DNA of 64,000 nucleotides. Source: Pyrinomonadales bacterium (lineage in GTDB: Bacteria; Acidobacteriota; Blastocatellia; Pyrinomonadales; Pyrinomonadaceae). The position numbers and the translations under genes were made by a program. This document shows, piece by piece, positions 11,013 to 45,089 of the stretch (position 1 is its first letter; every line of letters starts with the position of its first letter). The notes under the pieces were generated by a model. That model made no database searches. It had not been told where the DNA came from and worked only from the letters and a program-made list of their open reading frames with translations. The DNA is taken from positions 11,201 to 75,200 of the forward strand of contig JBBPXX010000005.1 of the NCBI GenBank assembly GCA_038200505.1, read 5' to 3'.

Positions 11013-11223
11013 TCAACAATAAATGGATTAAATTTAACAATTTATGTAAAGTAATTTTCTAGGAGTTACGCAGTTAAAAATGAAAAAGTAAGAAAACATT
11101 CGGAATAACTGCTAGCTGGAAGATTATAGATGAGAGATTAAAACGATAGATTTATTATCTATCAGCTATAATTTATCATCTATTGCGAATAATTTTCCGT
11201 TTGAACTGCGTAACTTCTAAAAA

Positions 11224-11296
11224 GTTTTGAGTTCAAACTTTAGTTTGTCCGCCGCGCTTCGCCGACGGAAAGCACGCTAAAGCGTGAACTCAAAAC
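11224..11296. repeat. 73-nt GC-rich structured element closed by a 12-bp stem
   Basis: GTTTTGAGTTCA at 11224..11235 pairs with TGAACTCAAAAC at 11285..11296. Two small internal hairpins are possible. Confidence 0.5.
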
Positions 11297-11387
11297 ATTA
11301 AAAAACTTATTTTACGGTGTGTTTAATATTATTTCGCAATGATTTAATACATAATAAGTTGCAGAAATTCTTTATCAATAATTTTCT

Positions 11388-11807
11388 ATGCCCGAAATCG
11401 TTAATAACCAACGCAAAATCAAAATCAATAATGAAATCTTTCAAGCATTTACTGAAAGTGCGGGAGAAAAAATCAGCGAAACCAAAGACAAGGATTTTAC
11501 AATAGCGTTTATATCGGATAAAAAGATGCGCGAATTAAATTTTAATTTTCGTAGCAAAAACTCGACGACGGATGTATTATCTTTTCCTTTTGAAACCGAC
11601 GAATTTGAAGATGATAATCTCGGCGACATTGCAATTTCGCTCGAACAAGCTGCAAGACAGGCAATCGAAAATAATCTTGATTTTGAAACGGAAATAAAGC
11701 AGCTTATTCTGCACGGTATTCTGCATTTATGCGGTTACGACCACGAAACCGACGACGGCGAAATGAATAAACGCGAACTCAAACTTCGTGATAAACTCGG
11801 AATTTAA
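11388..11807 (+). CDS. ybeY: rRNA maturation endoribonuclease YbeY
   Basis: Has the HGILHLCGYDHE zinc-binding motif. Length is 139 aa. Confidence 0.9.
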   Translation: MPEIVNNQRKIKINNEIFQAFTESAGEKISETKDKDFTIAFISDKKMRELNFNFRSKNSTTDVLSFPFETDEFEDDNLGDIAISLEQAARQAIENNLDFETEIKQLILHGILHLCGYDHETDDGEMNKRELKLRDKLGI

Positions 11808-11810
11808 ATT

Positions 11811-12269
11811 ATGGCGGCAAAATTTGATTATTCGCTCGATTATAAAAATTTGGATTTGAGAAAACACCCTGAACTTTACTGCATCGGGAAAGGCGAACAG
11901 GGAGTTTTACTTGTAGAGCCGTATAAAAGTGAAGTTCTTAGGCATTGGAGATTTAAAACGCCGGAAATCGCCGAAGAATCGAGCGCGAAAATTTACGAAC
12001 TTTTTCTCGAATACAAAGAGCAAAAAGATTTTGTCGGAATGGATATGGCGCGAAAGTTTTTGCAGATGGGAATTACGCGGGCGCGGCGTTATGCCAATCA
12101 TAAATCCGGGCGCAAGTATAAAAAAGGCACGAAGGAAATTTTGCCGATTGAAGAAGACAAAGTAAAAGCCGAATCCGCGAAAATCTTTTCGGAGAAATAT
12201 TATCTTGCCAAAAATGATGAAGTTTATCAGGCGTTGATGAAGGAACATAAGGAAAAATATGAAGAATAA
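11811..12269 (+). CDS. DUF4385-like protein
   Basis: The block HPELYCIGKGEQGVLLVEPYKSE..HWRFKTPEIA...ARKFLQMG.TRARRYANHKSG matches my recollection of the DUF4385 family. Confidence 0.65.
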   Translation: MAAKFDYSLDYKNLDLRKHPELYCIGKGEQGVLLVEPYKSEVLRHWRFKTPEIAEESSAKIYELFLEYKEQKDFVGMDMARKFLQMGITRARRYANHKSGRKYKKGTKEILPIEEDKVKAESAKIFSEKYYLAKNDEVYQALMKEHKEKYEE

Positions 12270-12277
12270 TCAAAAAT

Positions 12278-12829
12278 ATGGCAATTGAAATCGAGAAAAA
12301 ATTCACATTATCAAACGATCAGCGCGAACAGATTTTGGCAAGTTTAAAAGAATTCGGCGCGGAATATATCAGAGAAGATTTTGAAGAAAACATACTTTAC
12401 CAAGGCAGTATTTTGATGGAAAAAGGCGCGGTTTTGCGCGTTCGTAAAATTGGCGATAAAACGATTTTGACTTATAAAGAACCCGTTCAAAATTCATTGG
12501 CGCACAAACAGCGAATCGAATATGAAACGGAAGTCGAAAATGCCGACGAACTTGAAAAAATTATTGAAAATCTCGGTTTCACAAAAGCGTTGGTTTATGA
12601 AAAACGCCGAAAAATCTGGCATTTCCGAAGTGTGGAAATCGTTTTGGATGAATTGCCATTTGGAATTTATATGGAAATCGAAGGTTCGATAACAGCGATT
12701 GCCGAAGCGGAAATGTTTCTCGACGGCGAAAATCTGGAAGAAGAAAATCAAACTTATCCGCGCCTGACGGAAAGGTTCGGTGTGCGAAAAGAACACTTGA
12801 TTGAAGCGAGATTTTCAAAAAGTTCTTGA
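12278..12829 (+). CDS. CYTH domain protein (triphosphate tunnel metalloenzyme / class IV adenylate cyclase-like)
   Basis: Has the N-terminal IEIEKKF (ExExK) signature. Length is 183 aa. Confidence 0.75.
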   Translation: MAIEIEKKFTLSNDQREQILASLKEFGAEYIREDFEENILYQGSILMEKGAVLRVRKIGDKTILTYKEPVQNSLAHKQRIEYETEVENADELEKIIENLGFTKALVYEKRRKIWHFRSVEIVLDELPFGIYMEIEGSITAIAEAEMFLDGENLEEENQTYPRLTERFGVRKEHLIEARFSKSS

Positions 12830-13743: not shown

Positions 13744-15693
13744 TTATTTCTTCACAATTTCCAAAATGTCTTGAATAATTACATCCGGCTCGAAAGGTTT
13801 GGTGTGATATTTTTGAAAACCTGCGCTGTAAGCCTTGTTTTTGTTGTCATTTGAAGCAAACGCACTGAGCGCGAGCGCGGGAATTTCTCCGCCGTTTTCG
13901 GCAGTCAATTTTCGGATGCGTTCAATAAAGGAATAACCGTCTTCATTGGGCATTGCTAAATCCGAAATTAGCACATCCGGCAAATTTCCGTTTGATTCCC
14001 GTAATAAATTGATTGCTTCCTGCGCCGAATTCGTGCTTTCAACCACAGCACCGCTTTGTTCCAAAAGCAAATGCAGAACTTCGCGTGAGTCGGGATCGTC
14101 TTCAATCACTAAAACTTTTATTCCTTTTAATTGCTTGTCATTATTTGAAACGGATTTTTCGACTTCCAACGGTGAAGCCGTCTGCGTTCCGCACAAAGGG
14201 AAAAAGATGGTAAAGGTTGCGCCTTTACCGACTCCGGCACTTTCCGCTTCTATTTTTCCGTTGTGTTTTTCGACTAAAATTTTGACAATTGACAAACCGA
14301 GTCCCAAACCGCTTCTGTCGAGCGATTGTCTTTCGTCATCCTGACGAAACTGCCGAAAAATGTTCGGCAGCGCACTCGGAATAATTCCCTGTCCGTTGTC
14401 TTTAACGGAAATTTTGACGGAATTAACATCGGCTTGAGCGTCAATTTTGATGTCGCCGCCTTCGCGTGTAAATTTCATCGCGTTTGACAGCAAATTTGAA
14501 AAAATCTGCTGCAAACGAAAAGCATCGCCGTAAACCTGAATATTTTCCACATTCGCAGTGAATTCGAGATTTATATTTTTCGATTCGGCGGCAGGCTGCT
14601 GCGAATTATAAGCGGTTTTGAGAACTTCAAAAAGATTTAACGGCTGCATTTCGAGTTTCAGCTTGCCGGACGAAATCCGCGCCGAATCAATCAAATCGTC
14701 AATCAATTTAGCCTGCGTCCGCGCACTTTTCTCAATGGTTTCGAGTGCGCTTTTTCTCGTTTCGTCGTCAACTTCCTTGGTCAGCAGAATTTTCGACCAA
14801 CCCAAAATCGCATTGAGCGGCGACCTTAATTCGTGTGAAACGACGGCGAGAAAAAAATCTTTGGCGCGATTGGCTTCCTCGGCTTCATCACGCGCTTTTT
14901 TCTCACGATCATAAACTTTTGAGAGTTCTTCGTTGGCTAGCTTTTTATCCGTAATTTTTCTGACAACGCCCATCATAATTTGTGGATTTCCTTCGTCGTC
15001 AAGATAAGTTTTTCCGCGCGATCCGATCCATTCAATATTGCCGTCCGAATATACGACCCGAAATTCAGAATTATACTCTCTGCCGTGTGTTTGTGATTCC
15101 TTCAGTGCGGCTTCAACCTGCGGACGATCTTCAGGATGAATAACTTTCATAAAAGAATCCAGAGCAATAATATCGTTCTGAGAAACTTCAAATAGTTCAT
15201 TGCATTTCGGAGTCGAATATCTTGAATCTTTTGCCAAATCCCAATACCAAAGCCCGACTTCCGCATTTTCAGCCGCGTAAAGCAGATATTCACTGCGTTC
15301 CTTATAATATTCGATTTCCTTTTCGCGGGCGGTAACTTCGTGGGCGCAAAAAAAGATTTTTTCTACTTTTTCATCTTCAAAAATCGGATGCAAATATAAT
15401 TCGACATTTATTTTTTCATTGGCACTGACTCTGAAATCCACCAGAATTTTTTCCCTGTTACCTTCCGCCGCTTGTGAAATTGAACTTTCGACCTGTTTGG
15501 CGATATGCTCCGACGATTGCCAATAAACCGTTTCGGAAAACTTTTGACCAATCAGGAGTTCAGGATTCGTATCTATCTTTTCAAAAACCCTTCCATTAAG
15601 GCTTTGAACAGAACCCTTAACTGAAAGCGTCCCAAAAAAGGCAAATACATTTTTGAAAATATCCAAAGTATAACCGTCAGGGGTAAATTCCAT
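13744..15693 (-). CDS. hybrid sensor histidine kinase/response regulator with PAS domains
   Basis: PAS-like N-terminal half, HisKA VVSHELRSPLNAI, HATPase GLGLGLSIV, and a C-terminal REC (DVLISDLAMPNEDG). The start could also be 15711. GGAGA precedes the ATG at 15693. Confidence 0.85.
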   Translation of the reverse strand: MEFTPDGYTLDIFKNVFAFFGTLSVKGSVQSLNGRVFEKIDTNPELLIGQKFSETVYWQSSEHIAKQVESSISQAAEGNREKILVDFRVSANEKINVELYLHPIFEDEKVEKIFFCAHEVTAREKEIEYYKERSEYLLYAAENAEVGLWYWDLAKDSRYSTPKCNELFEVSQNDIIALDSFMKVIHPEDRPQVEAALKESQTHGREYNSEFRVVYSDGNIEWIGSRGKTYLDDEGNPQIMMGVVRKITDKKLANEELSKVYDREKKARDEAEEANRAKDFFLAVVSHELRSPLNAILGWSKILLTKEVDDETRKSALETIEKSARTQAKLIDDLIDSARISSGKLKLEMQPLNLFEVLKTAYNSQQPAAESKNINLEFTANVENIQVYGDAFRLQQIFSNLLSNAMKFTREGGDIKIDAQADVNSVKISVKDNGQGIIPSALPNIFRQFRQDDERQSLDRSGLGLGLSIVKILVEKHNGKIEAESAGVGKGATFTIFFPLCGTQTASPLEVEKSVSNNDKQLKGIKVLVIEDDPDSREVLHLLLEQSGAVVESTNSAQEAINLLRESNGNLPDVLISDLAMPNEDGYSFIERIRKLTAENGGEIPALALSAFASNDNKNKAYSAGFQKYHTKPFEPDVIIQDILEIVKK

Positions 15694-17376: not shown

Positions 17377-18349
17377 ACCCGTTGACGAACAACACGCTTT
17401 ACAAATTCAAGCCGGAACAATAGGAAGGAAGAAAGGACACGATTTTGAGGATAATTTGACTTCAAAATTGAATTCTTTACCGATGCCTTACAAGATTGAG
17501 GAATTTCCTGAACCGGAAAAACATTTATTTACAGATAATCCTGAAATATCTGTTTTACATTATGTTTGCTCTCGAAAAGGCATTTTTGAAATAAAGCAGA
17601 TTATCGCAATTTCCACAGGCGCATTAGCGACATCTGAAGCTGGCAAAAAGTGGTTGGACGTGAACGGCGTGAAAGTATCGAGATGCAAAAGCGACGTAAT
17701 TTTAACTTTGAAATTAAAAGATAATACTGATGTAACCGTCGGAATTTCCACAAAGCAATGCAACAATAAAACTCCAACAAACGCGCAATTATATTTCACC
17801 ACAGCCAGAGCTTTTTGCGCTCTTTTGAGGAATAACAACATAGAAGTTGCCGAAAAAGGCGAAAAAGCATTGCGTCAATTTTGCGGCGACGAAGGCTTTC
17901 GTCCGCTTGATTTTCCTCATCTACTTACAGACAGACAAAGCGATCCGCGCCGATTTTTCTGGGAGGAAATTGATTCGGAAGGACGAGTTGAGTTGGAAAA
18001 TTTATTGACCAAAAAGCAAGATGAAATAACGCGCCTTTTATTGCAAAAAGCATATCTTGATGATCCATTTGCGCCTGATTTTATTCTGCATAAAACAAAA
18101 CGTGCGGACAGTTGGGAGAAAACGGAAGTTGCAATTTATACAGTTGACGAACTGATTAGACTTTCGAGAAATTACGCCGGATTTGCTCTTGAATCATATT
18201 CCGTCAGAAAAGGAAGTTACCGTGATCCAAAAGGAGTTACACATTTAGCTCCGCGTTTCGGCATCGTTCAAATGCAGCGCGGCGGACAATCTCAACATCC
18301 GACGCAACTACAATTCAACTTAAAAGCCGGATATTTCTACAAGATTTAA
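17366..18349 (+). CDS. putative type II restriction endonuclease, 327 aa
   Basis: Sits directly after, and overlaps, a C protein, and is convergent with a C5 methyltransferase. A possible PD-(D/E)xK-like core is KSDVILTLKL...VGISTKQ. Specificity is unknown. Confidence 0.6.
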   Translation: MALKPVDEQHALQIQAGTIGRKKGHDFEDNLTSKLNSLPMPYKIEEFPEPEKHLFTDNPEISVLHYVCSRKGIFEIKQIIAISTGALATSEAGKKWLDVNGVKVSRCKSDVILTLKLKDNTDVTVGISTKQCNNKTPTNAQLYFTTARAFCALLRNNNIEVAEKGEKALRQFCGDEGFRPLDFPHLLTDRQSDPRRFFWEEIDSEGRVELENLLTKKQDEITRLLLQKAYLDDPFAPDFILHKTKRADSWEKTEVAIYTVDELIRLSRNYAGFALESYSVRKGSYRDPKGVTHLAPRFGIVQMQRGGQSQHPTQLQFNLKAGYFYKI

Positions 18350-19732
18350 CAATTCCATTTTGATATGTCGGGCAATCGCAAAGGCAAGCAAAGGCGGCAA
18401 GGCATTTCCAATGGTTGCGCGAATATCGCCGAGCGAACCGACGAATTTGAAAGTATCGGGAAATGATTGAATACGCGCCGCTTCTCTGACAGTTAAAGAG
18501 CGCGTGGCAATCGGATGGACATTGCGACAACCGGAAATCATTCCGAAAGTAGTTTGAACGGTTGAAGCCGGTTCGTTCCAAATCTGGCGTTTATAAGTCG
18601 TGTTATAACCGGAAGGCGGACGCAAATTCGCGTCTTCGTTTTCGTGTGCGCTTTTTCCTTGCGGCACATCCCAAAGCCATTTGATAACGTGGTCTGGATG
18701 TCTAACCGCTTCGTGCAGAGAATCGGTTTGGCTTTTTTCACCGGATTCAAGAAATTCTAAATCAGAACAGGCATCAGCAAATGTGCGATAAGGCGCAACA
18801 GAGGAAAAAAGATTGTTCGTTTCTCCGTGTGTCGGCAACGACATTGTCGGTTCAATATTTTTCAAATCATTTCTAACAGCAATAAAAATTACCCGTTCGC
18901 GGTGTTGCGGAATTCCATAATCTTTAGCATTAATTTCAAAATGCTTAACTCGATAACCCGACGCATCAAAATCTTTGTAAATTTGATTTAGAACTAAGTT
19001 GCCGTCGGCAGTTTTCATTGAAGTTAAAAGCCGGACATTTTCCATAACGGCAACTTTTGGCTGTAATCCGTTGACTATTTTTAAATAACTCTTAAACAAA
19101 TTATTTCTGGAGTCGCTTACATCACGTTTGCCGGAAAGACTAAAACCCTGACAAGGCGGACCACCGATAACAACATCAATTTCGCCAAATTCATTTTTCC
19201 ATTGGTTAATTATTTTGTCGTTGATTTTTTTTATATCCGCGCCTAATTCGACGGCTTTAGAGAAATTTTGCCGATAAATTTTACGGAAGGCATTTTTTAA
19301 TTCTAAAAAACCAAGTATTTCAAAATCAGCCCAAGAAAAACCTAAGCTAAAACCGCCGCAACCGGAAAATAAAGAAATAACTTTTCCCTTTTTTTGATTA
19401 GAAATTCGTGTTTTTTCAAGTTGATCTAAAAAAGTGAGATAATTTTTGTTTTCTTCCGTTCGTCTAATTTTAGATTTACGAGAAACTGTTTTCGGAATTC
19501 CATCAAAAGAATGAACTTGATAGCGTTTCTTTTTAATCTCCCGAACTTGAGTTTTACTGATTTCACTCAAAACTTTATGAAGAGAAGATAAATTATTTTG
19601 ATTTAAAGAGGATTTTCCAAGTTCATAAGCAGACAATAAATGTTGCGGAATATCAGCTAACTCTGAAAGTTTAGCTTGCGATAATCCAATCTCTTTGCGT
19701 TTTTCTCTTGTTGAAGTTCCCGAATTTATCAT
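18320..19732 (-). CDS. DNA (cytosine-5)-methyltransferase with N-terminal XRE-type HTH extension
   Basis: Motif I FSGCGGFSLGF, IV GGPPCQGFS, VI MENV, VIII QHRERVIFIA, X GNALPP. The N-terminal ~60 aa contain IGLSQAKLSELADIPQHLLSAYELGK. Confidence 0.92.
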   Translation of the reverse strand: MINSGTSTREKRKEIGLSQAKLSELADIPQHLLSAYELGKSSLNQNNLSSLHKVLSEISKTQVREIKKKRYQVHSFDGIPKTVSRKSKIRRTEENKNYLTFLDQLEKTRISNQKKGKVISLFSGCGGFSLGFSWADFEILGFLELKNAFRKIYRQNFSKAVELGADIKKINDKIINQWKNEFGEIDVVIGGPPCQGFSLSGKRDVSDSRNNLFKSYLKIVNGLQPKVAVMENVRLLTSMKTADGNLVLNQIYKDFDASGYRVKHFEINAKDYGIPQHRERVIFIAVRNDLKNIEPTMSLPTHGETNNLFSSVAPYRTFADACSDLEFLESGEKSQTDSLHEAVRHPDHVIKWLWDVPQGKSAHENEDANLRPPSGYNTTYKRQIWNEPASTVQTTFGMISGCRNVHPIATRSLTVREAARIQSFPDTFKFVGSLGDIRATIGNALPPLLAFAIARHIKMELLNLVEISGF

Positions 19733-28765: not shown

Positions 28766-29379
28766 TCTGAATCTTCGACTGCTTTCTGCAATTCCAAATA
28801 CTTTTCGCAGACAAACGGATTTAATTTTTCGGCAAAATCAGCGTCTAAATTTTTAACTTTTATGAGTTCCTGCACATCAGCTAAATCCTTTAAGCGATGC
28901 GGCGCGGTCATTCCCGACGCTAATTTTAATTCGATCAGTTTTTCCAAAGTCAAAGTTTTAACGCCGTCAATTTCCACTTGATTTTCGTTCGGATTTGGAA
29001 AAACAACCGGCTTTGGTTTACCATCGCCGGGAAATTCGCCTGCTGTTATCACTTCGATTGTTACATTTTCATTAGTTGTTCTGAATTTTTTAGTCGCGCC
29101 TTCGAACGCCGGACGATAACCTAATCCGACGAGTTCATTTTGAAACTTTTCCAAGCCAGACTTTGTTAGTAACAAATCAATATCTTCGGTAAAACGGCGA
29201 TAACCATATTGATTCAAAGCAATTGCACCAATGACGCTATAATCAATTCCGCAATTTTCCAAATCTTTTGTGACGCGGCGCAATGTTTCGTTGAGCGTTC
29301 CTTGTCCCATAAAAAACCTCAATCCTTCATCGTAAGCCGAAACGGGCGATGAAATCCTTTTTTGAAAATCAGTTCTCAT
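28762..29379 (-). CDS. nucleotidyltransferase-fold protein, 205 aa
   Basis: Pol-beta NTase-like G.IALNQYGYRRFTEDIDLLL. The start ATG overlaps the truA stop (ATGA). The longer tracked ORF overlaps truA and is rejected. Confidence 0.55.
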   Translation of the reverse strand: MRTDFQKRISSPVSAYDEGLRFFMGQGTLNETLRRVTKDLENCGIDYSVIGAIALNQYGYRRFTEDIDLLLTKSGLEKFQNELVGLGYRPAFEGATKKFRTTNENVTIEVITAGEFPGDGKPKPVVFPNPNENQVEIDGVKTLTLEKLIELKLASGMTAPHRLKDLADVQELIKVKNLDADFAEKLNPFVCEKYLELQKAVEDSE

Positions 29380-39839: not shown

Positions 39840-40646
39840 ATGCAGAAAAAAATTCTAATTGTTGATGACCACGACGACCTGAAAACTGTTTTGACAGAAG
39901 TTTTCAGCAAAATCGGTTATTCGGTAAAATCAACGGCGAGCCGCAAGGAAGCCGTCGAACTCGATAAATCGAATGAATATGATTTGGTTATTACTGATCT
40001 CGACGGCGATAAAGCCTTTCCGAAGGAAGATGCCGACGACGACGACACTTGTCTGCCAACGGAAAATGCCGGTGATTTTGACCGCAGTTTTGTCAAAGCT
40101 TTTAAGATTTGCGCGACTAATTTCAAACGCGAAAATTTCGACGAAACCGAACTCAAAAATCTTTTTGAAACCATTCTCAATTACAAAATCCAATTTGTAG
40201 ATAAAACCAACGCCGTCAAATATATTCGTGAAAAAATCGAATTTGAATTTCCGAGCGCGATTTCCTTAATGCACAGCATTTTGGATTATTTAATGAAGCG
40301 CGTCGAAAAAAACGGCATCGTTGATGCTGAAAACTCCAATCTTTTCATTGCTTTGGACGAAGCCTTCGTCAATGCCATTAAACACGGCAACAAATTTGAC
40401 GCAAACAAAATCGTCCGCATTTCAGCCGAAGTTTCGCCAACCGAGGCGCGTTTCACCATCGAAGACGAAGGCGAAGGTTTCAATGTGAGCGAAATTCCCG
40501 ACCCGACAAATCCTGAAAATCTTTTCAAAACGTCCGGGCGCGGCGTTCTGATTATCCACAATATAATGGACGAAGTTTCTTACAATGAACGCGGCAATCG
40601 TTTAACAATGGTCAAAAGAAACGAAACAAAAAAAGAAGAAGTTTAA
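39840..40646 (+). CDS. receiver domain fused to an RsbW/SpoIIAB-like HATPase (anti-sigma-factor-type kinase) domain
   Basis: N-terminal REC-like ILIVDDHDD...DLVITDLDGD. The C-terminal part has the N-box NAIKHGN and the G-box GRGVLII. Confidence 0.68.
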   Translation: MQKKILIVDDHDDLKTVLTEVFSKIGYSVKSTASRKEAVELDKSNEYDLVITDLDGDKAFPKEDADDDDTCLPTENAGDFDRSFVKAFKICATNFKRENFDETELKNLFETILNYKIQFVDKTNAVKYIREKIEFEFPSAISLMHSILDYLMKRVEKNGIVDAENSNLFIALDEAFVNAIKHGNKFDANKIVRISAEVSPTEARFTIEDEGEGFNVSEIPDPTNPENLFKTSGRGVLIIHNIMDEVSYNERGNRLTMVKRNETKKEEV

Positions 40647-40653
40647 GAAAATC

Positions 40654-41262
40654 TCATTTTATTTTGTCCAATTCGGCTCTAATCTCTTCATTTGTCGGGC
40701 GATATTTATAGTCCGATTCAACTTTCGACCACAAAACTTTGCGGTTTTTGTCTAAAACATAAACCGCCGGATGCGGAATTCCTTCGACACCTTTGCCGAT
40801 ATAAACCGGATCGAAAAGTCCGTAAGCGTCAATCGTTTGATGGTTCGGATCGGAAAGCAACGGAAATCCTACTTTGCCGCCGTCTTTTGAAATTTTTTCT
40901 ATCAATCCCAGACTTTTTTCCGCCGGATCAATGCTGACCGCATAAAGCGAAACCTTCTCGCCGTCCTTTAATAAACTGCGTAATTCGGCTAACTGCCGAC
41001 CGCAGTATGGTCACCAATAACCGCGATAAAAAACGAGAACCACGGGATTTTTTGCTTCGGAAAGCGTAACTTTCTTGCCGTTTTGGTCAAACAAACTAAA
41101 ATCCGGCGCAACTTCGCCGACTTTTAGCGGCTCGGTTTTGTTTCTCTGTATTTTTACAGACTCGGCTTTTTTATTTTCCGGTTTGTCTTTCAACGGTTGT
41201 TTCTGGGCGAAAACGGCAAAACTAAAGATCAAAATCGCCGCCGTTAATAAAATTGTTTTCAT
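40654..41262 (-). CDS. secreted redoxin/peroxiredoxin-like thiol-disulfide oxidoreductase with in-frame TGA (candidate selenocysteine) at 41011..41013
   Basis: Signal peptide MKTILLTAAILIFSFAVFAQ followed by a thioredoxin-fold FYRGYW-TGA-PYC. Both tracked ORF pieces are in one frame with no other stop. Confidence 0.6.
40976..41005 (-). promoter_or_regulatory. SECIS-like hairpin 3' of the in-frame UGA
   Basis: The mRNA folds as CUGCG-G-UCGGC-AGUUA-GCCGA-AUUA-CGCAG. That gives two 5-bp helices and an apical loop containing GU about 20 nt after the UGA. Confidence 0.5.
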
Positions 41263-41352
41263 ATTTTCCTGTCTTGGAAGATTTTCAATAAAATATTCGT
41301 TCGCTTTGGTTTTATTCCGAAAACGGATTAAATTATTCTTTGAGTATAACCT

Positions 41353-43014
41353 ATGAAAGTTACAATCGGACAAATTAACACGACCAACGGCGATTTTGAG
41401 GGAAATGTCGCTAAAATTCTGAACGCAATCGAAAAAGCCAAACAAGACGATTCGAATTTGCTTGTTTTCCCCGAAGTCGTCATTCACGGCTATACTTCGC
41501 AGGATTGGTTTCTGGATAAGGACATTATCGAAAAAGCCGACGAACATCTGCAAAAAATCGTTGATGCGTCAAAAGGTTTGACCGTTATCGTCGGCACGAT
41601 TCGGCGTAATGAAGAAACCGACGGGCGCAGACTTTTTAATTCAGCGGCGGTGATGCACGACGGCAAATTGCTCGGATTTGCCGATAAAACCTTGCTGCCG
41701 GAATATGATGTTTTTGATGATCCGCGTTATTTTGAACCTTCGGAAACGCGCAGTATGTTTGAAATCGGCGGACAAAAAATCGGTGTCGTCGTTTGCGAAG
41801 ATTTTTGGAACGACAAAACTTTTTGGAAACAAAGACTTTATGACGTTGATCCGGCGGAAGAACTGATTATGCGCGGCGCGGATTTGATTGTCGCCATCAA
41901 CGCTTCGCCTTATAACAAAGGCAAAATAAAACTGCGCTGCGATATGGTCGCTCATCGTGCGCGGGAACAAAAAAAGCCAATTATTTTTGTCAATCTTGTC
42001 GGCGGAAACGACGGAATTATCTTCGACGGCGCGAGTTTAATTGCCGACGAAGAAGGCGACATAATTTTGCAGGCGGCGGCATTTGAAGAATTTGTCGAAA
42101 CTGTTGAATTGGATGTTCGCAAACCCGATTCACGCGGAATTACGGGCGGCGAACTCGAAGCGATTCGGCAGGCATTGGTTTTGGGAATCAAAGATTACGC
42201 GCACAAAAACCGTTTTACAAAAGCCGTTCTCGGTCTTTCCGGCGGAATTGATTCGGCGATTGTCGCAATTTTGGCGAGCGAAGCATTAGGCGCGGAAAAT
42301 GTTTTGGCAGTGATGATGCCATCGCCGTTTTCGTCGGAAGGAAGCATTAAACATTCGGAAACATTGATCGGAAATCTCGGTTGTGATTCTCGTATTGAGC
42401 CGATTTCAGATGCTTTTGAAGTTTTGCTCAAACAGTTAAATCTTCATAAACCGACGCACGGCGGCGAAAATCTGGCGGCGGAAAATATGCAATCGCGTCT
42501 GCGCGGCGTGATTTTAATGACGATTTCCAACGCCGAAGGTCGCCTTGTTTTGGCAACCGGCAACAAAAGCGAACTTGCCGTCGGTTACTGCACGCTTTAC
42601 GGCGATACGAACGGCGGTTTGGCGGTCATCGGCGATGTTTTAAAGACAGAAGTCTATGCACTTTCGCGGCACATCAACGAAAGCGCAAAACGTGAAATAA
42701 TTCCGATTGAAATTATTGAAAAAGCTCCGTCCGCCGAACTTGCGCCGAATCAATTTGACCAAGACTCGCTGCCGCCTTATGAATTGATGGACCCGATTTT
42801 GAAACTCTATTTTGAAGACAAATTTTCTCCCGAAGAGATCATCGCCGAAGGACATAACTCCGAATTGGTTTATAATCTATTGAACAAAGTCGAATCCCCG
42901 GCAAACGAATTCAAACGCCGACAGCTTCCGCCGACGCTGATAATTTCCAAAAACGCCATCGGTGTCGGACGCAGACGACCTGTAACGCACAAATATCGGA
43001 GAACTCCAAAATAA
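41353..43014 (+). CDS. nadE: glutamine-dependent NAD+ synthetase
   Basis: N-terminal CN-hydrolase domain and a C-terminal synthetase domain with GLSGGIDSA. Length is 553 aa. Confidence 0.92.
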   Translation: MKVTIGQINTTNGDFEGNVAKILNAIEKAKQDDSNLLVFPEVVIHGYTSQDWFLDKDIIEKADEHLQKIVDASKGLTVIVGTIRRNEETDGRRLFNSAAVMHDGKLLGFADKTLLPEYDVFDDPRYFEPSETRSMFEIGGQKIGVVVCEDFWNDKTFWKQRLYDVDPAEELIMRGADLIVAINASPYNKGKIKLRCDMVAHRAREQKKPIIFVNLVGGNDGIIFDGASLIADEEGDIILQAAAFEEFVETVELDVRKPDSRGITGGELEAIRQALVLGIKDYAHKNRFTKAVLGLSGGIDSAIVAILASEALGAENVLAVMMPSPFSSEGSIKHSETLIGNLGCDSRIEPISDAFEVLLKQLNLHKPTHGGENLAAENMQSRLRGVILMTISNAEGRLVLATGNKSELAVGYCTLYGDTNGGLAVIGDVLKTEVYALSRHINESAKREIIPIEIIEKAPSAELAPNQFDQDSLPPYELMDPILKLYFEDKFSPEEIIAEGHNSELVYNLLNKVESPANEFKRRQLPPTLIISKNAIGVGRRRPVTHKYRRTPK

Positions 43015-43769: not shown

Positions 43770-45089
43770 TTACTTTTCGCTGCGTTTCATTCTTAAAAAC
43801 CATACAACGCCCGCACTTGCCGACAGAATCCCCGAAATGACCGTCAGCATTTGCGGCGAAATGTAATACATCAATTCGCTCGAAAAATAGCTGGAAAGTC
43901 CGAAAATCGTCATTTCCGCGCCGCGATCAAGCGTCGAAATCCGTCCGCGAATGTAATCCGGCAAACTGCGTTGAAACATCGTTTCCTGCACTGCATATTC
44001 CACGCCGATAATCGCCCGCGACACGAACGTAAAAAGCATAAACATCCACAAACTCGGCAGATAGCCGCCGATTGCAAACAAAATTCCGTGAATGATCAGC
44101 GACCAGCCGATAAATGCCGAATGCGAATTTTTACGGTCAAGCCAATTTGAAGTGCGATGGGCAAATATCATTCCGAGTGTCAAACCCAAACCACCCGTCG
44201 TCCACAACAGCGCGACCGCCAAATCAGGACTCAGATTATCTTTCGCCGCAAAATAAACGCCGCCCATTCGCTCGAAAATCACGTTGATCGCGCCGCCGCC
44301 CGTCGCCCAGATGACGTTCATCAAAAGAATCGTCAGCGCGAAATGGTTTTTAATCGTGTATTGCAGACCTTCTTTGAGTTCAAAAATAAACGATTCACGT
44401 TTGTGTTCGCCGACAAATTCAGACGGGGAAAATCCGCCCGCCGCCGTAATCGGCGCGGTTAGAATAGTTTCGTCCAAACTTTTGACATATTTTCGTTCGC
44501 GCATCGCTTCTTCGGGAATCAGCCAGACGGATAATGCCGAAACCGCAAACGACGCGGCGTTAATGAGAAAAGCGATTTTGTAGCCGAAAAGAACCGCCGC
44601 GAAACCGCCGAGCGCGGAACCGATTGCCATCAGCAAAAATCTGGTCGAAAACATCAAAGCCGTTCCCGCCAATAATCCGTCTTTGCCGGTCAAATTCGGC
44701 GTGGCGGCATTTTTCGCGCCTTCAAAAAACGCGCCGAAAGTCGAAAGCATCGCCATCGAAAGATATGCGATCCATAAATTTTCCGCGCTGTTGACCAATA
44801 AAAAAGCGAGCGCGACAAAAACACGCGATAAATCCGAAAAAATCATCACATTGCGCCGCGAAAATCGGTCAACAAAAGTTCCGGCAATCGGTGAAAAAAC
44901 GGCAAACGGCAAAAGTCGGCAAGCAAATAAAATTCCCGCCGCCGTCGGCGAAGCGTCCGAAACAACGCGCACCAAACCCAAGCCGGCGATAAAGTTAAAC
45001 CAGTTTCCCATCTCGGAAATAAACTGTCCCCACAAAAGATTGCGGAAATTGCGGTTACTTTTAAGCAGTTGTGAATACGTCAGATTCAT
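43770..45089 (-). CDS. MFS transporter
   Basis: 12-TM-like profile with AGTFVDRFSRRNVM (the MFS loop 2-3 motif). Start taken at MNLTYSQ. The tracked 5' extension overlaps the neighbouring gene. Confidence 0.8.
   Translation of the reverse strand: MNLTYSQLLKSNRNFRNLLWGQFISEMGNWFNFIAGLGLVRVVSDASPTAAGILFACRLLPFAVFSPIAGTFVDRFSRRNVMIFSDLSRVFVALAFLLVNSAENLWIAYLSMAMLSTFGAFFEGAKNAATPNLTGKDGLLAGTALMFSTRFLLMAIGSALGGFAAVLFGYKIAFLINAASFAVSALSVWLIPEEAMRERKYVKSLDETILTAPITAAGGFSPSEFVGEHKRESFIFELKEGLQYTIKNHFALTILLMNVIWATGGGAINVIFERMGGVYFAAKDNLSPDLAVALLWTTGGLGLTLGMIFAHRTSNWLDRKNSHSAFIGWSLIIHGILFAIGGYLPSLWMFMLFTFVSRAIIGVEYAVQETMFQRSLPDYIRGRISTLDRGAEMTIFGLSSYFSSELMYYISPQMLTVISGILSASAGVVWFLRMKRSEK

Follow-up and report, generated by a model that had tools for sequence, protein, structure and literature searches.

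A candidate exported Prx-like selenoprotein with UGA in its redox motif from Pyrinomonadaceae

Does an in-frame TGA in a redoxin gene of a Pyrinomonadaceae genome end translation, or is it read as selenocysteine (Sec)? The gene is located on the minus strand of the window, i.e., the whole 64-kb (64,000 nucleotides) stretch of DNA that was analysed. The candidate CDS (40654..41262, minus strand) comprises 202 codons including Sec, starting with an ATG at 41262..41260 and stopping at a TGA at 40656..40654. A putative ribosome-binding site, AGGA (41267..41270, minus strand), read from the sequence alone, lies 4 nt 5' of the ATG. The ORF list breaks the gene into two parts, 41011..41553 and 40654..40905, the same two ORFs that were reported in the initial annotation of this DNA. 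There, the TGA at 41011..41013 was held to be the sole interruption of a candidate selenoprotein gene, and translation of the 202 codons bears this out: the frame 41262..40654 of the minus strand contains a single internal stop, the TGA at 41013..41011, within the residues VLVFYRGYW-TGA-PYCGRQLAELRS. Read as Sec at residue 84, this UGA (41011..41013, minus strand) opens a U84-P85-Y86-C87 redox motif (41002..41013, minus strand), P85 and C87 of which are invariant columns among homologues. With a Cys typed in for the TGA, the translated product matches Pfam PF00578 (AhpC-TSA) over residues 48-177 (E 1.2e-28, 99.9 bits vs a cut-off of 26) and PF08534 (Redoxin, E 2.4e-18), both matches running across the TGA.

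A protein search returns 444 homologues, mainly from Pyrinomonadaceae bins, and those of full length are 60-74% identical to the window protein. Among the best 120 of these 444, the motif W-C-P-x-C is found in 111, and "W-W-P-x-C" in eight (P0005, P0032, P0048, P0058, P0068, P0082, P0105, and P0114). In the alignment, the TGA occupies the column of the first Cys of W-C-P-x-C, in agreement with its initial placement at the first position of a W-C-x-x-C motif. At the three loci examined behind Trp-labelled entries (L001:1623, L002:930, and L003:443), the DNA has an in-frame TGA, and the Trp reported at the Sec position is therefore a gene-calling artefact. When one genome was scanned for each GTDB species, 79 loci with 80 homologous genes were obtained from Pyrinomonadaceae/Blastocatellia genome bins. 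The equivalent of codon 84 is TGA in 54 of the 80 genes and TGT or TGC in the other 26, and the alignment with Cys orthologues, proposed at the outset as a check, thus pairs the TGA column with Cys in 26 of 80 cases. The nearest locus compared by DNA matches the window gene at 77%. Some genomes hold several copies: two TGA copies are separated by 5 kb in L048 (L048:5018 and L048:10154), and bin DASQPD01 (L033, L049, L076, and L077) has two TGA and two Cys paralogues. A motif variant, W-U-P-H-C, with His for Phe/Tyr, occurs at L052:10229 and L057:10229, where the same hairpin is kept.

That hairpin is found straight after the UGA. Its conserved SECIS core (40985..40999, minus strand; alignment columns 15-29) consists of a 5-bp stem, UCGGC/GCCGA, and a loop, AGUUA. 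It begins 11 nt past the UGA, and the distance from the UGA to the loop is 16 nt. In the window, the core is part of an extended hairpin (40975..41006, minus strand) that has a lower stem ACUGCG/CGCAGU, a bulged G41000, and a 3' internal loop AUUA. The initial annotation had drawn this structure as CUGCG-G-UCGGC-AGUUA-GCCGA-AUUA-CGCAG, which corresponds to 41005..40976 and leaves five nt (CCAUA) between the UGA and the hairpin. It had also placed a GU-containing apical loop about 20 nt from the UGA, and the loop is indeed formed by nt 20-24 when the U of UGA is counted as 1. In a 44-nt context, the full hairpin is the MFE fold at -15.0 kcal/mol (z = -3.15), a stability matched by 2 of 200 shuffled sequences. 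When the context is widened to 67 nt, the hairpin is the centroid and not the MFE structure, and the fold is not significant (z = -1.0).

The comparison of 55 distinct TGA sequences, aligned without gaps, with the 26 Cys genes reveals which part of this hairpin is conserved. Codons +5 to +8 are nearly frozen in the TGA genes (CGG in 55/55, CAG in 55/55, TTR in 53/55, and GCC in 54/55), whereas the 26 Cys genes encode the R-Q-L-A peptide with mixed synonymous codons at the same positions. Over codons +1 to +12, the median dS is 0.82 in TGA genes vs 1.28 in Cys genes. The upper helix is paired in 97.5% of the cells of the TGA alignment, with four pairs invariant in nucleotides. All five pairs can form in 48 of the 55 TGA genes, but in no Cys gene (0 of 26). 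The closing pair covaries (UA in 36 sequences, CG in 6, and GC in 6), which ties the synonymous third position of an Ala codon to the first base of the next Glu, Gly, or Ala codon. Frozen codons, a covarying closing pair, and a lower dS together amount to an RNA-structure constraint specific to the UGA-bearing genes. The consensus fold computed by RNAalifold consists of the upper 5-bp helix and nothing else. The lower stem, which the window shares with its nearest relatives, is paired in 57.9% of cells across the family and is hence a local, lineage-specific extension outside the conserved element. The hairpin of the initial annotation is thus retained for its upper 5-bp stem and loop, while its lower stem, with 58% of cells paired, is ruled out as a family-wide feature.

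Bacterial SECIS elements are described as hairpins just 3' of the UGA with a small apical loop that contains a G and lies 16-37 nt from the UGA (PMC10778597, PMC1088965). The element described here has this geometry, with 16 nt from UGA to loop and an AGUUR loop in which a G and a U are exposed. As in the E. coli fdhF-type SECIS, the hairpin is immediately 3' of the UGA, the G and U of the loop are exposed, and an unpaired base precedes the upper stem on its 5' side; unlike in the latter, the pentaloop is AGUUR instead of GGUC, and the sequence differs. The 11-nt spacing between the UGA and the window stem-loop is reportedly also that of the minimal element of E. coli (Liu et al. 1998). No Rfam family matches the hairpin: a search around the site at E <= 10 returns sucC alone, with a meaningless 12 bits. 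A near-copy of the hairpin core, CGGCAGATAGCCG, with one mismatch, is present at 44055-44067 of the window (plus strand) within the region of another gene; as there is no UGA 12 nt 5' of 44055..44067, it is judged to be a chance match. In 1.1 Mb of homologue-locus flanks, a UGA followed by the same hairpin was found in the Prx-like family alone and in no other gene family.

Several lines of evidence bear on the selenoprotein status that the initial annotation had proposed: the conserved UGA, the alternation of TGA and Cys codons, a hairpin constraint seen only in TGA genes, and, as described below, purifying selection downstream of the TGA and the linkage of relatives to tRNA-Sec and selB. All of them support it. 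We hold it very probable that the window gene encodes an exported Prx-like thiol:disulfide oxidoreductase of thioredoxin fold, in which Sec is the N-terminal active-site residue (U84-P-Y-C87).

The machinery for Sec insertion was looked for in the window and in relatives. ARAGORN detects no tRNA in the 64-kb window, and Rfam, run on the whole window at gathering thresholds, returns no match, and so no tRNA-Sec. Among ten size-matched window ORFs, NCBIfam identifies none as SelA, SelB, or SelD; their functions are Dcm, GDH, fumarylacetoacetase, histidine kinases, a PcrA-type helicase, PurM, and SDR. A tblastn search of the window with E. coli SelA, SelB, and SelD queries retrieves PurM alone, a member of the SelD superfamily. 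The sel genes are presumed to be present in the source genome, and Sec users are already known among Acidobacteria (PMC1794560). In L063, which carries a TGA-form gene, a tRNA-Sec is located 3.9 kb downstream (Rfam RF01852, 65.4 bits vs a gathering threshold of 47).

More distant relatives, too, lend indirect support. A metagenome scan for TGA-N12-CGGCAGTTRGCCG yields 120 stretches, in 77 of which the TGA lies in a Prx-like gene and corresponds to the U of W-U-x-x-C, and these matches include cytoplasmic relatives about 30% identical to the window protein. Three loci (L137:1-2452, L167:1-1915, and L179:43-3364) display the order selB, tRNA-Sec, cytoplasmic Prx-like UxxC gene. The Prx-like gene (FYRGHW-U-PYCRRQLAG) is 30% identical, with the same UGA position and hairpin core, and starts from ~40 nt (L167) up to ~850 nt (L179) after the tRNA. 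The tRNA-Sec scores 70-76 bits in these loci. SelB was identified in L179 by TIGR00475 (439.6 bits vs a cut-off of 242), and putatively in L137 and L167, by a tblastn match to an E. coli SelB query.

Some other genes of these loci deserve mention. An ArsS-type radical SAM gene (TIGR04167, 450 bits) lies beside a Sec-redoxin paralogue in nine genome loci, all of TGA form, as exemplified by L063:8622-9638 with 14354-14448, and by L048:7830-8841. The ArsS family is itself listed as sometimes being a selenoprotein, and the L063 copy is a Cys form. L063 also harbors, at 11087-12355 (minus strand), a 422-aa FAD-dependent pyridine nucleotide-disulfide oxidoreductase, the profile match of which ends at ~326 of ~460. 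A frameshift or a divergent C-terminus may underlie this partial match, or the gene may be a further case of recoding.

Three other explanations of the interrupted frame have to be weighed against selenocysteine. A reassigned genetic code, in which UGA would be a sense codon for Trp or Gly, might be suggested by the eight homologues among the best 120 that carry W at this position. UGA is nevertheless an ordinary stop here, as stated in the initial annotation on the basis of truA: 7 of the 44 window ORFs of at least 200 aa end in TGA, among them full-length truA (TIGR00071, 194 bits vs a cut-off of 142.85), whose stop at 29376..29378 (read as 29378..29376) was verified. The terminator of the candidate gene itself is a TGA (40656..40654), and the true stop is TGA in 13 of the 58 TGA-form genes, the window gene included. 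Moreover, among the in-frame TGA sites of the window that are flanked by 40 or more open codons in both directions, 41011..41013 is the only one in a redox-motif context, the remaining 52 being judged by eye as shadow frames of other genes. Since UGA terminates ordinary genes as well as the candidate gene, its recoding is position-specific, and a reassigned code is almost certainly not the explanation. It is also highly improbable that the gene is a pseudogene, or that faulty assembly or sequencing turned a TGC or TGT into the TGA, even though TGA is one base away from either codon and ORF callers break the gene in two. The initial annotation had pointed to additional inactivating lesions in relatives, or to a codon that is really TGC or TGT, as the observations that would speak against recoding. 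Neither is what the relatives reveal: the same TGA is found in 54 of the 80 homologous genes, from dozens of independent assemblies and without a further lesion in any of them, next to the 26 homologues with TGT or TGC, and the reading stands. In every TGA gene, the frame remains open for 118-125 codons 3' of the TGA (about 119 being typical). For the TGA genes, dN/dS has a median of 0.132 in the part 3' of the TGA and of 0.135 in the part 5' of it, values that rest on the less divergent pairs because dS is near saturation. Purifying selection being as strong 3' of the TGA as 5' of it, the downstream part must be translated, which excludes pseudogene and sequencing error alike, and constraint on downstream synonymous sites in TGA genes only also goes against them.

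Translation past the TGA might still be achieved by other means, namely by a near-cognate, SelB-independent read-through of the UGA (e.g., by Trp or Cys), or the UGA might mostly terminate, the hairpin serving for pausing or mRNA stability. A C invariably follows the UGA in the TGA genes (TGACC), and in E. coli termination is weak at UGA-C; furthermore, the sel genes were not found in the 64-kb window. Such a mechanism leaves unexplained, however, that the codon alternates with Cys codons only, and that a hairpin of SECIS geometry with a G/U-bearing loop follows it. Nor does it account for the relatives in which the same element is found directly 3' of selB and tRNA-Sec. We consider it unlikely, and retain Sec insertion as the preferred reading.

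Insertion of Sec would then proceed as follows. The hairpin UCGGC-AGUUA-GCCGA, 11 nt past the UGA, would expose the G and U of its loop, to which SelB loaded with GTP and Sec-tRNA(Sec) would bind. With the UGA in the A site, SelB would deliver Sec in place of termination by release factor 2. The second UGA, 119 codons further on and devoid of a hairpin, would lead to normal termination. The signal peptide would direct the protein out of the cytoplasm, where the selenolate at position 84 might attack a disulfide or a peroxide, an attack that C87 would resolve as a selenenylsulfide.

The predicted signal peptide, MKTILLTAAILIFSFAVFAQ (41203..41262, minus strand), was assigned from the sequence. 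The N-terminal segment of the homologues is likewise hydrophobic and ends in AQ, a feature kept throughout the Pyrinomonadaceae clade, and such a signal peptide suggests export from the cytoplasm. In the AlphaFold model of the Cys homologue P0001 (67% identical to the window protein, pLDDT 87), this region forms a single low-confidence helix ahead of the folded domain. The closest folds to this model are those of AhpE, PrxQ, and ResA. AhpE and PrxQ are the best PDB matches (TM 0.87-0.89 on the target, rmsd 1.6-1.7 Å), and the comparison with AhpE 4x1u (E 8e-14, TM 0.87 on the target, rmsd 1.7 Å) identifies a Prx-type thioredoxin fold. Upon alignment to PrxQ 2ywn, U84 falls on the Thr and C87 on the peroxidatic Cys, and the same pair is also matched to the CxxC of ResA. 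The Prx signature P-x-x-x-T-x-x-C is absent, with an invariant R80 for the Pro and U/C84 for the Thr. No NCBIfam model reaches its cut-off for the window protein: BCP scores 57.1 bits vs 140, and the ResA model NF002854 scores 42.7 bits vs 170, which does not make the protein a member. The enzyme may act on peroxides or disulfides.

These features can be compared with those of known systems. The selenoprotein families listed in the literature include a "Prx-like thiol:disulfide oxidoreductase, PF00578, UxxC" (PMC13188914, PMC1794560, PMC1088965). This family has UxxC/UxxU motifs and is represented by WP_010940744.1 from Geobacter (Kryukov & Gladyshev 2004; PMC1088965, PMC1794560, PMC13188914). 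Its members possess an AhpC/TSA domain and a thioredoxin-like UxxC in place of TxxU (PMC1088965), and a 2026 review considers the family as "predicted with high confidence", without experimental verification (PMC13188914). The window gene fits this family, as judged by comparison with the family description (PMC13188914, PMC1088965). It has the PF00578 domain, U-x-x-C for T-x-x-C/U, and a UGA/Cys alignment with conservation of the downstream ORF. It also has in common with the family the Sec/Cys alternation and a SECIS inside the ORF straight after the UGA. In contrast to the described members, which are mainly from Deltaproteobacteria and marine metagenomes, the window protein is a predicted exported form and belongs to Acidobacteriota of aerobic-soil type (Pyrinomonadaceae/Blastocatellia). 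The family is already known and the mechanism is not new; what the finding adds is a candidate member in a lineage where annotation overlooks such genes. Sec peroxiredoxins (Prx, PxxxTxxU) share their Pfam domain and overall fold with the window protein. In the latter, however, Sec takes the place of the catalytic Thr, three residues further upstream, and the peroxidatic position is a Cys. With Sec at the Thr position and Arg for Pro, the window protein departs from the Prx active-site signature. Proteins of the ResA/TlpA type resemble it by predicted export, by the thioredoxin fold, and by a W-C-P-x-C motif that matches ResA residue for residue. Unlike these, it keeps the longer Prx-type C-terminal half, and its first Cys is a Sec.

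How the Sec and Cys forms are related was addressed with an NJ tree, on which they are interleaved, parsimony requiring at least 10 Sec/Cys switches with a Sec root. The hairpin core is common to the Sec forms, and near-copies of it are kept by some Cys genes (L023, L034, and L008), of which L023 adjoins the Sec genes L013 and L020 on the tree. A core common to the Sec forms together with remnants in Cys genes favours a repeated replacement of Sec by Cys, a conclusion that stays tentative as the tree is a quick distance tree. In Pyrinomonadaceae/Blastocatellia, a lineage of mostly aerobic soil bacteria, the Sec form of the exported redoxin might be ancestral as well as the majority state, Cys having replaced it many times; we give this reading slightly less than even credence. 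If true, it goes against reported trends, according to which the Prx-like family evolves from Cys to Sec and Sec use favours anaerobes (PMC1794560). The 13-nt hairpin core encoding R-Q-L-A is also present in the cytoplasmic relatives of 30% identity; if the ancestral reading is true, part of the protein sequence has been kept fixed by an RNA element throughout a deep family.

The window gene illustrates a kind of UGA recoding that standard gene callers mishandle: it is split here, and eight of its 120 closest homologues carry a Trp at the Sec position in public sets. As no NCBIfam cut-off is passed, automated annotation likely misses the whole clade, to which, in its TGA form, two thirds of the Pyrinomonadaceae genome-bin homologues belong. 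Selenium is probably required by common Acidobacteriota of soils for a redox enzyme that acts outside the cytoplasm. The 55 Sec and 26 Cys sequences constitute a clean natural data set on the cost of a SECIS to the coding sequence, and may be used to build a family-specific SECIS/selenoprotein model.

The gene is flanked by NadE on one side and by a protein with receiver and HATPase_c_2 domains on the other, an arrangement that is syntenic for Sec and Cys forms alike. In the window, the latter gene (39840-40646, plus strand) encodes a partial response-regulator receiver fused to an anti-sigma-kinase-like HATPase_c_2 domain, and is convergent to the selenoprotein gene. It keeps its position in 27 loci, next to Sec and Cys forms, and these conserved flanking genes yield no functional clue. 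Elsewhere in the window, and unrelated to the selenoprotein, a DNA cytosine-5 methyltransferase gene (TIGR00675, 189 bits) is located at 18320-19732 on the minus strand.
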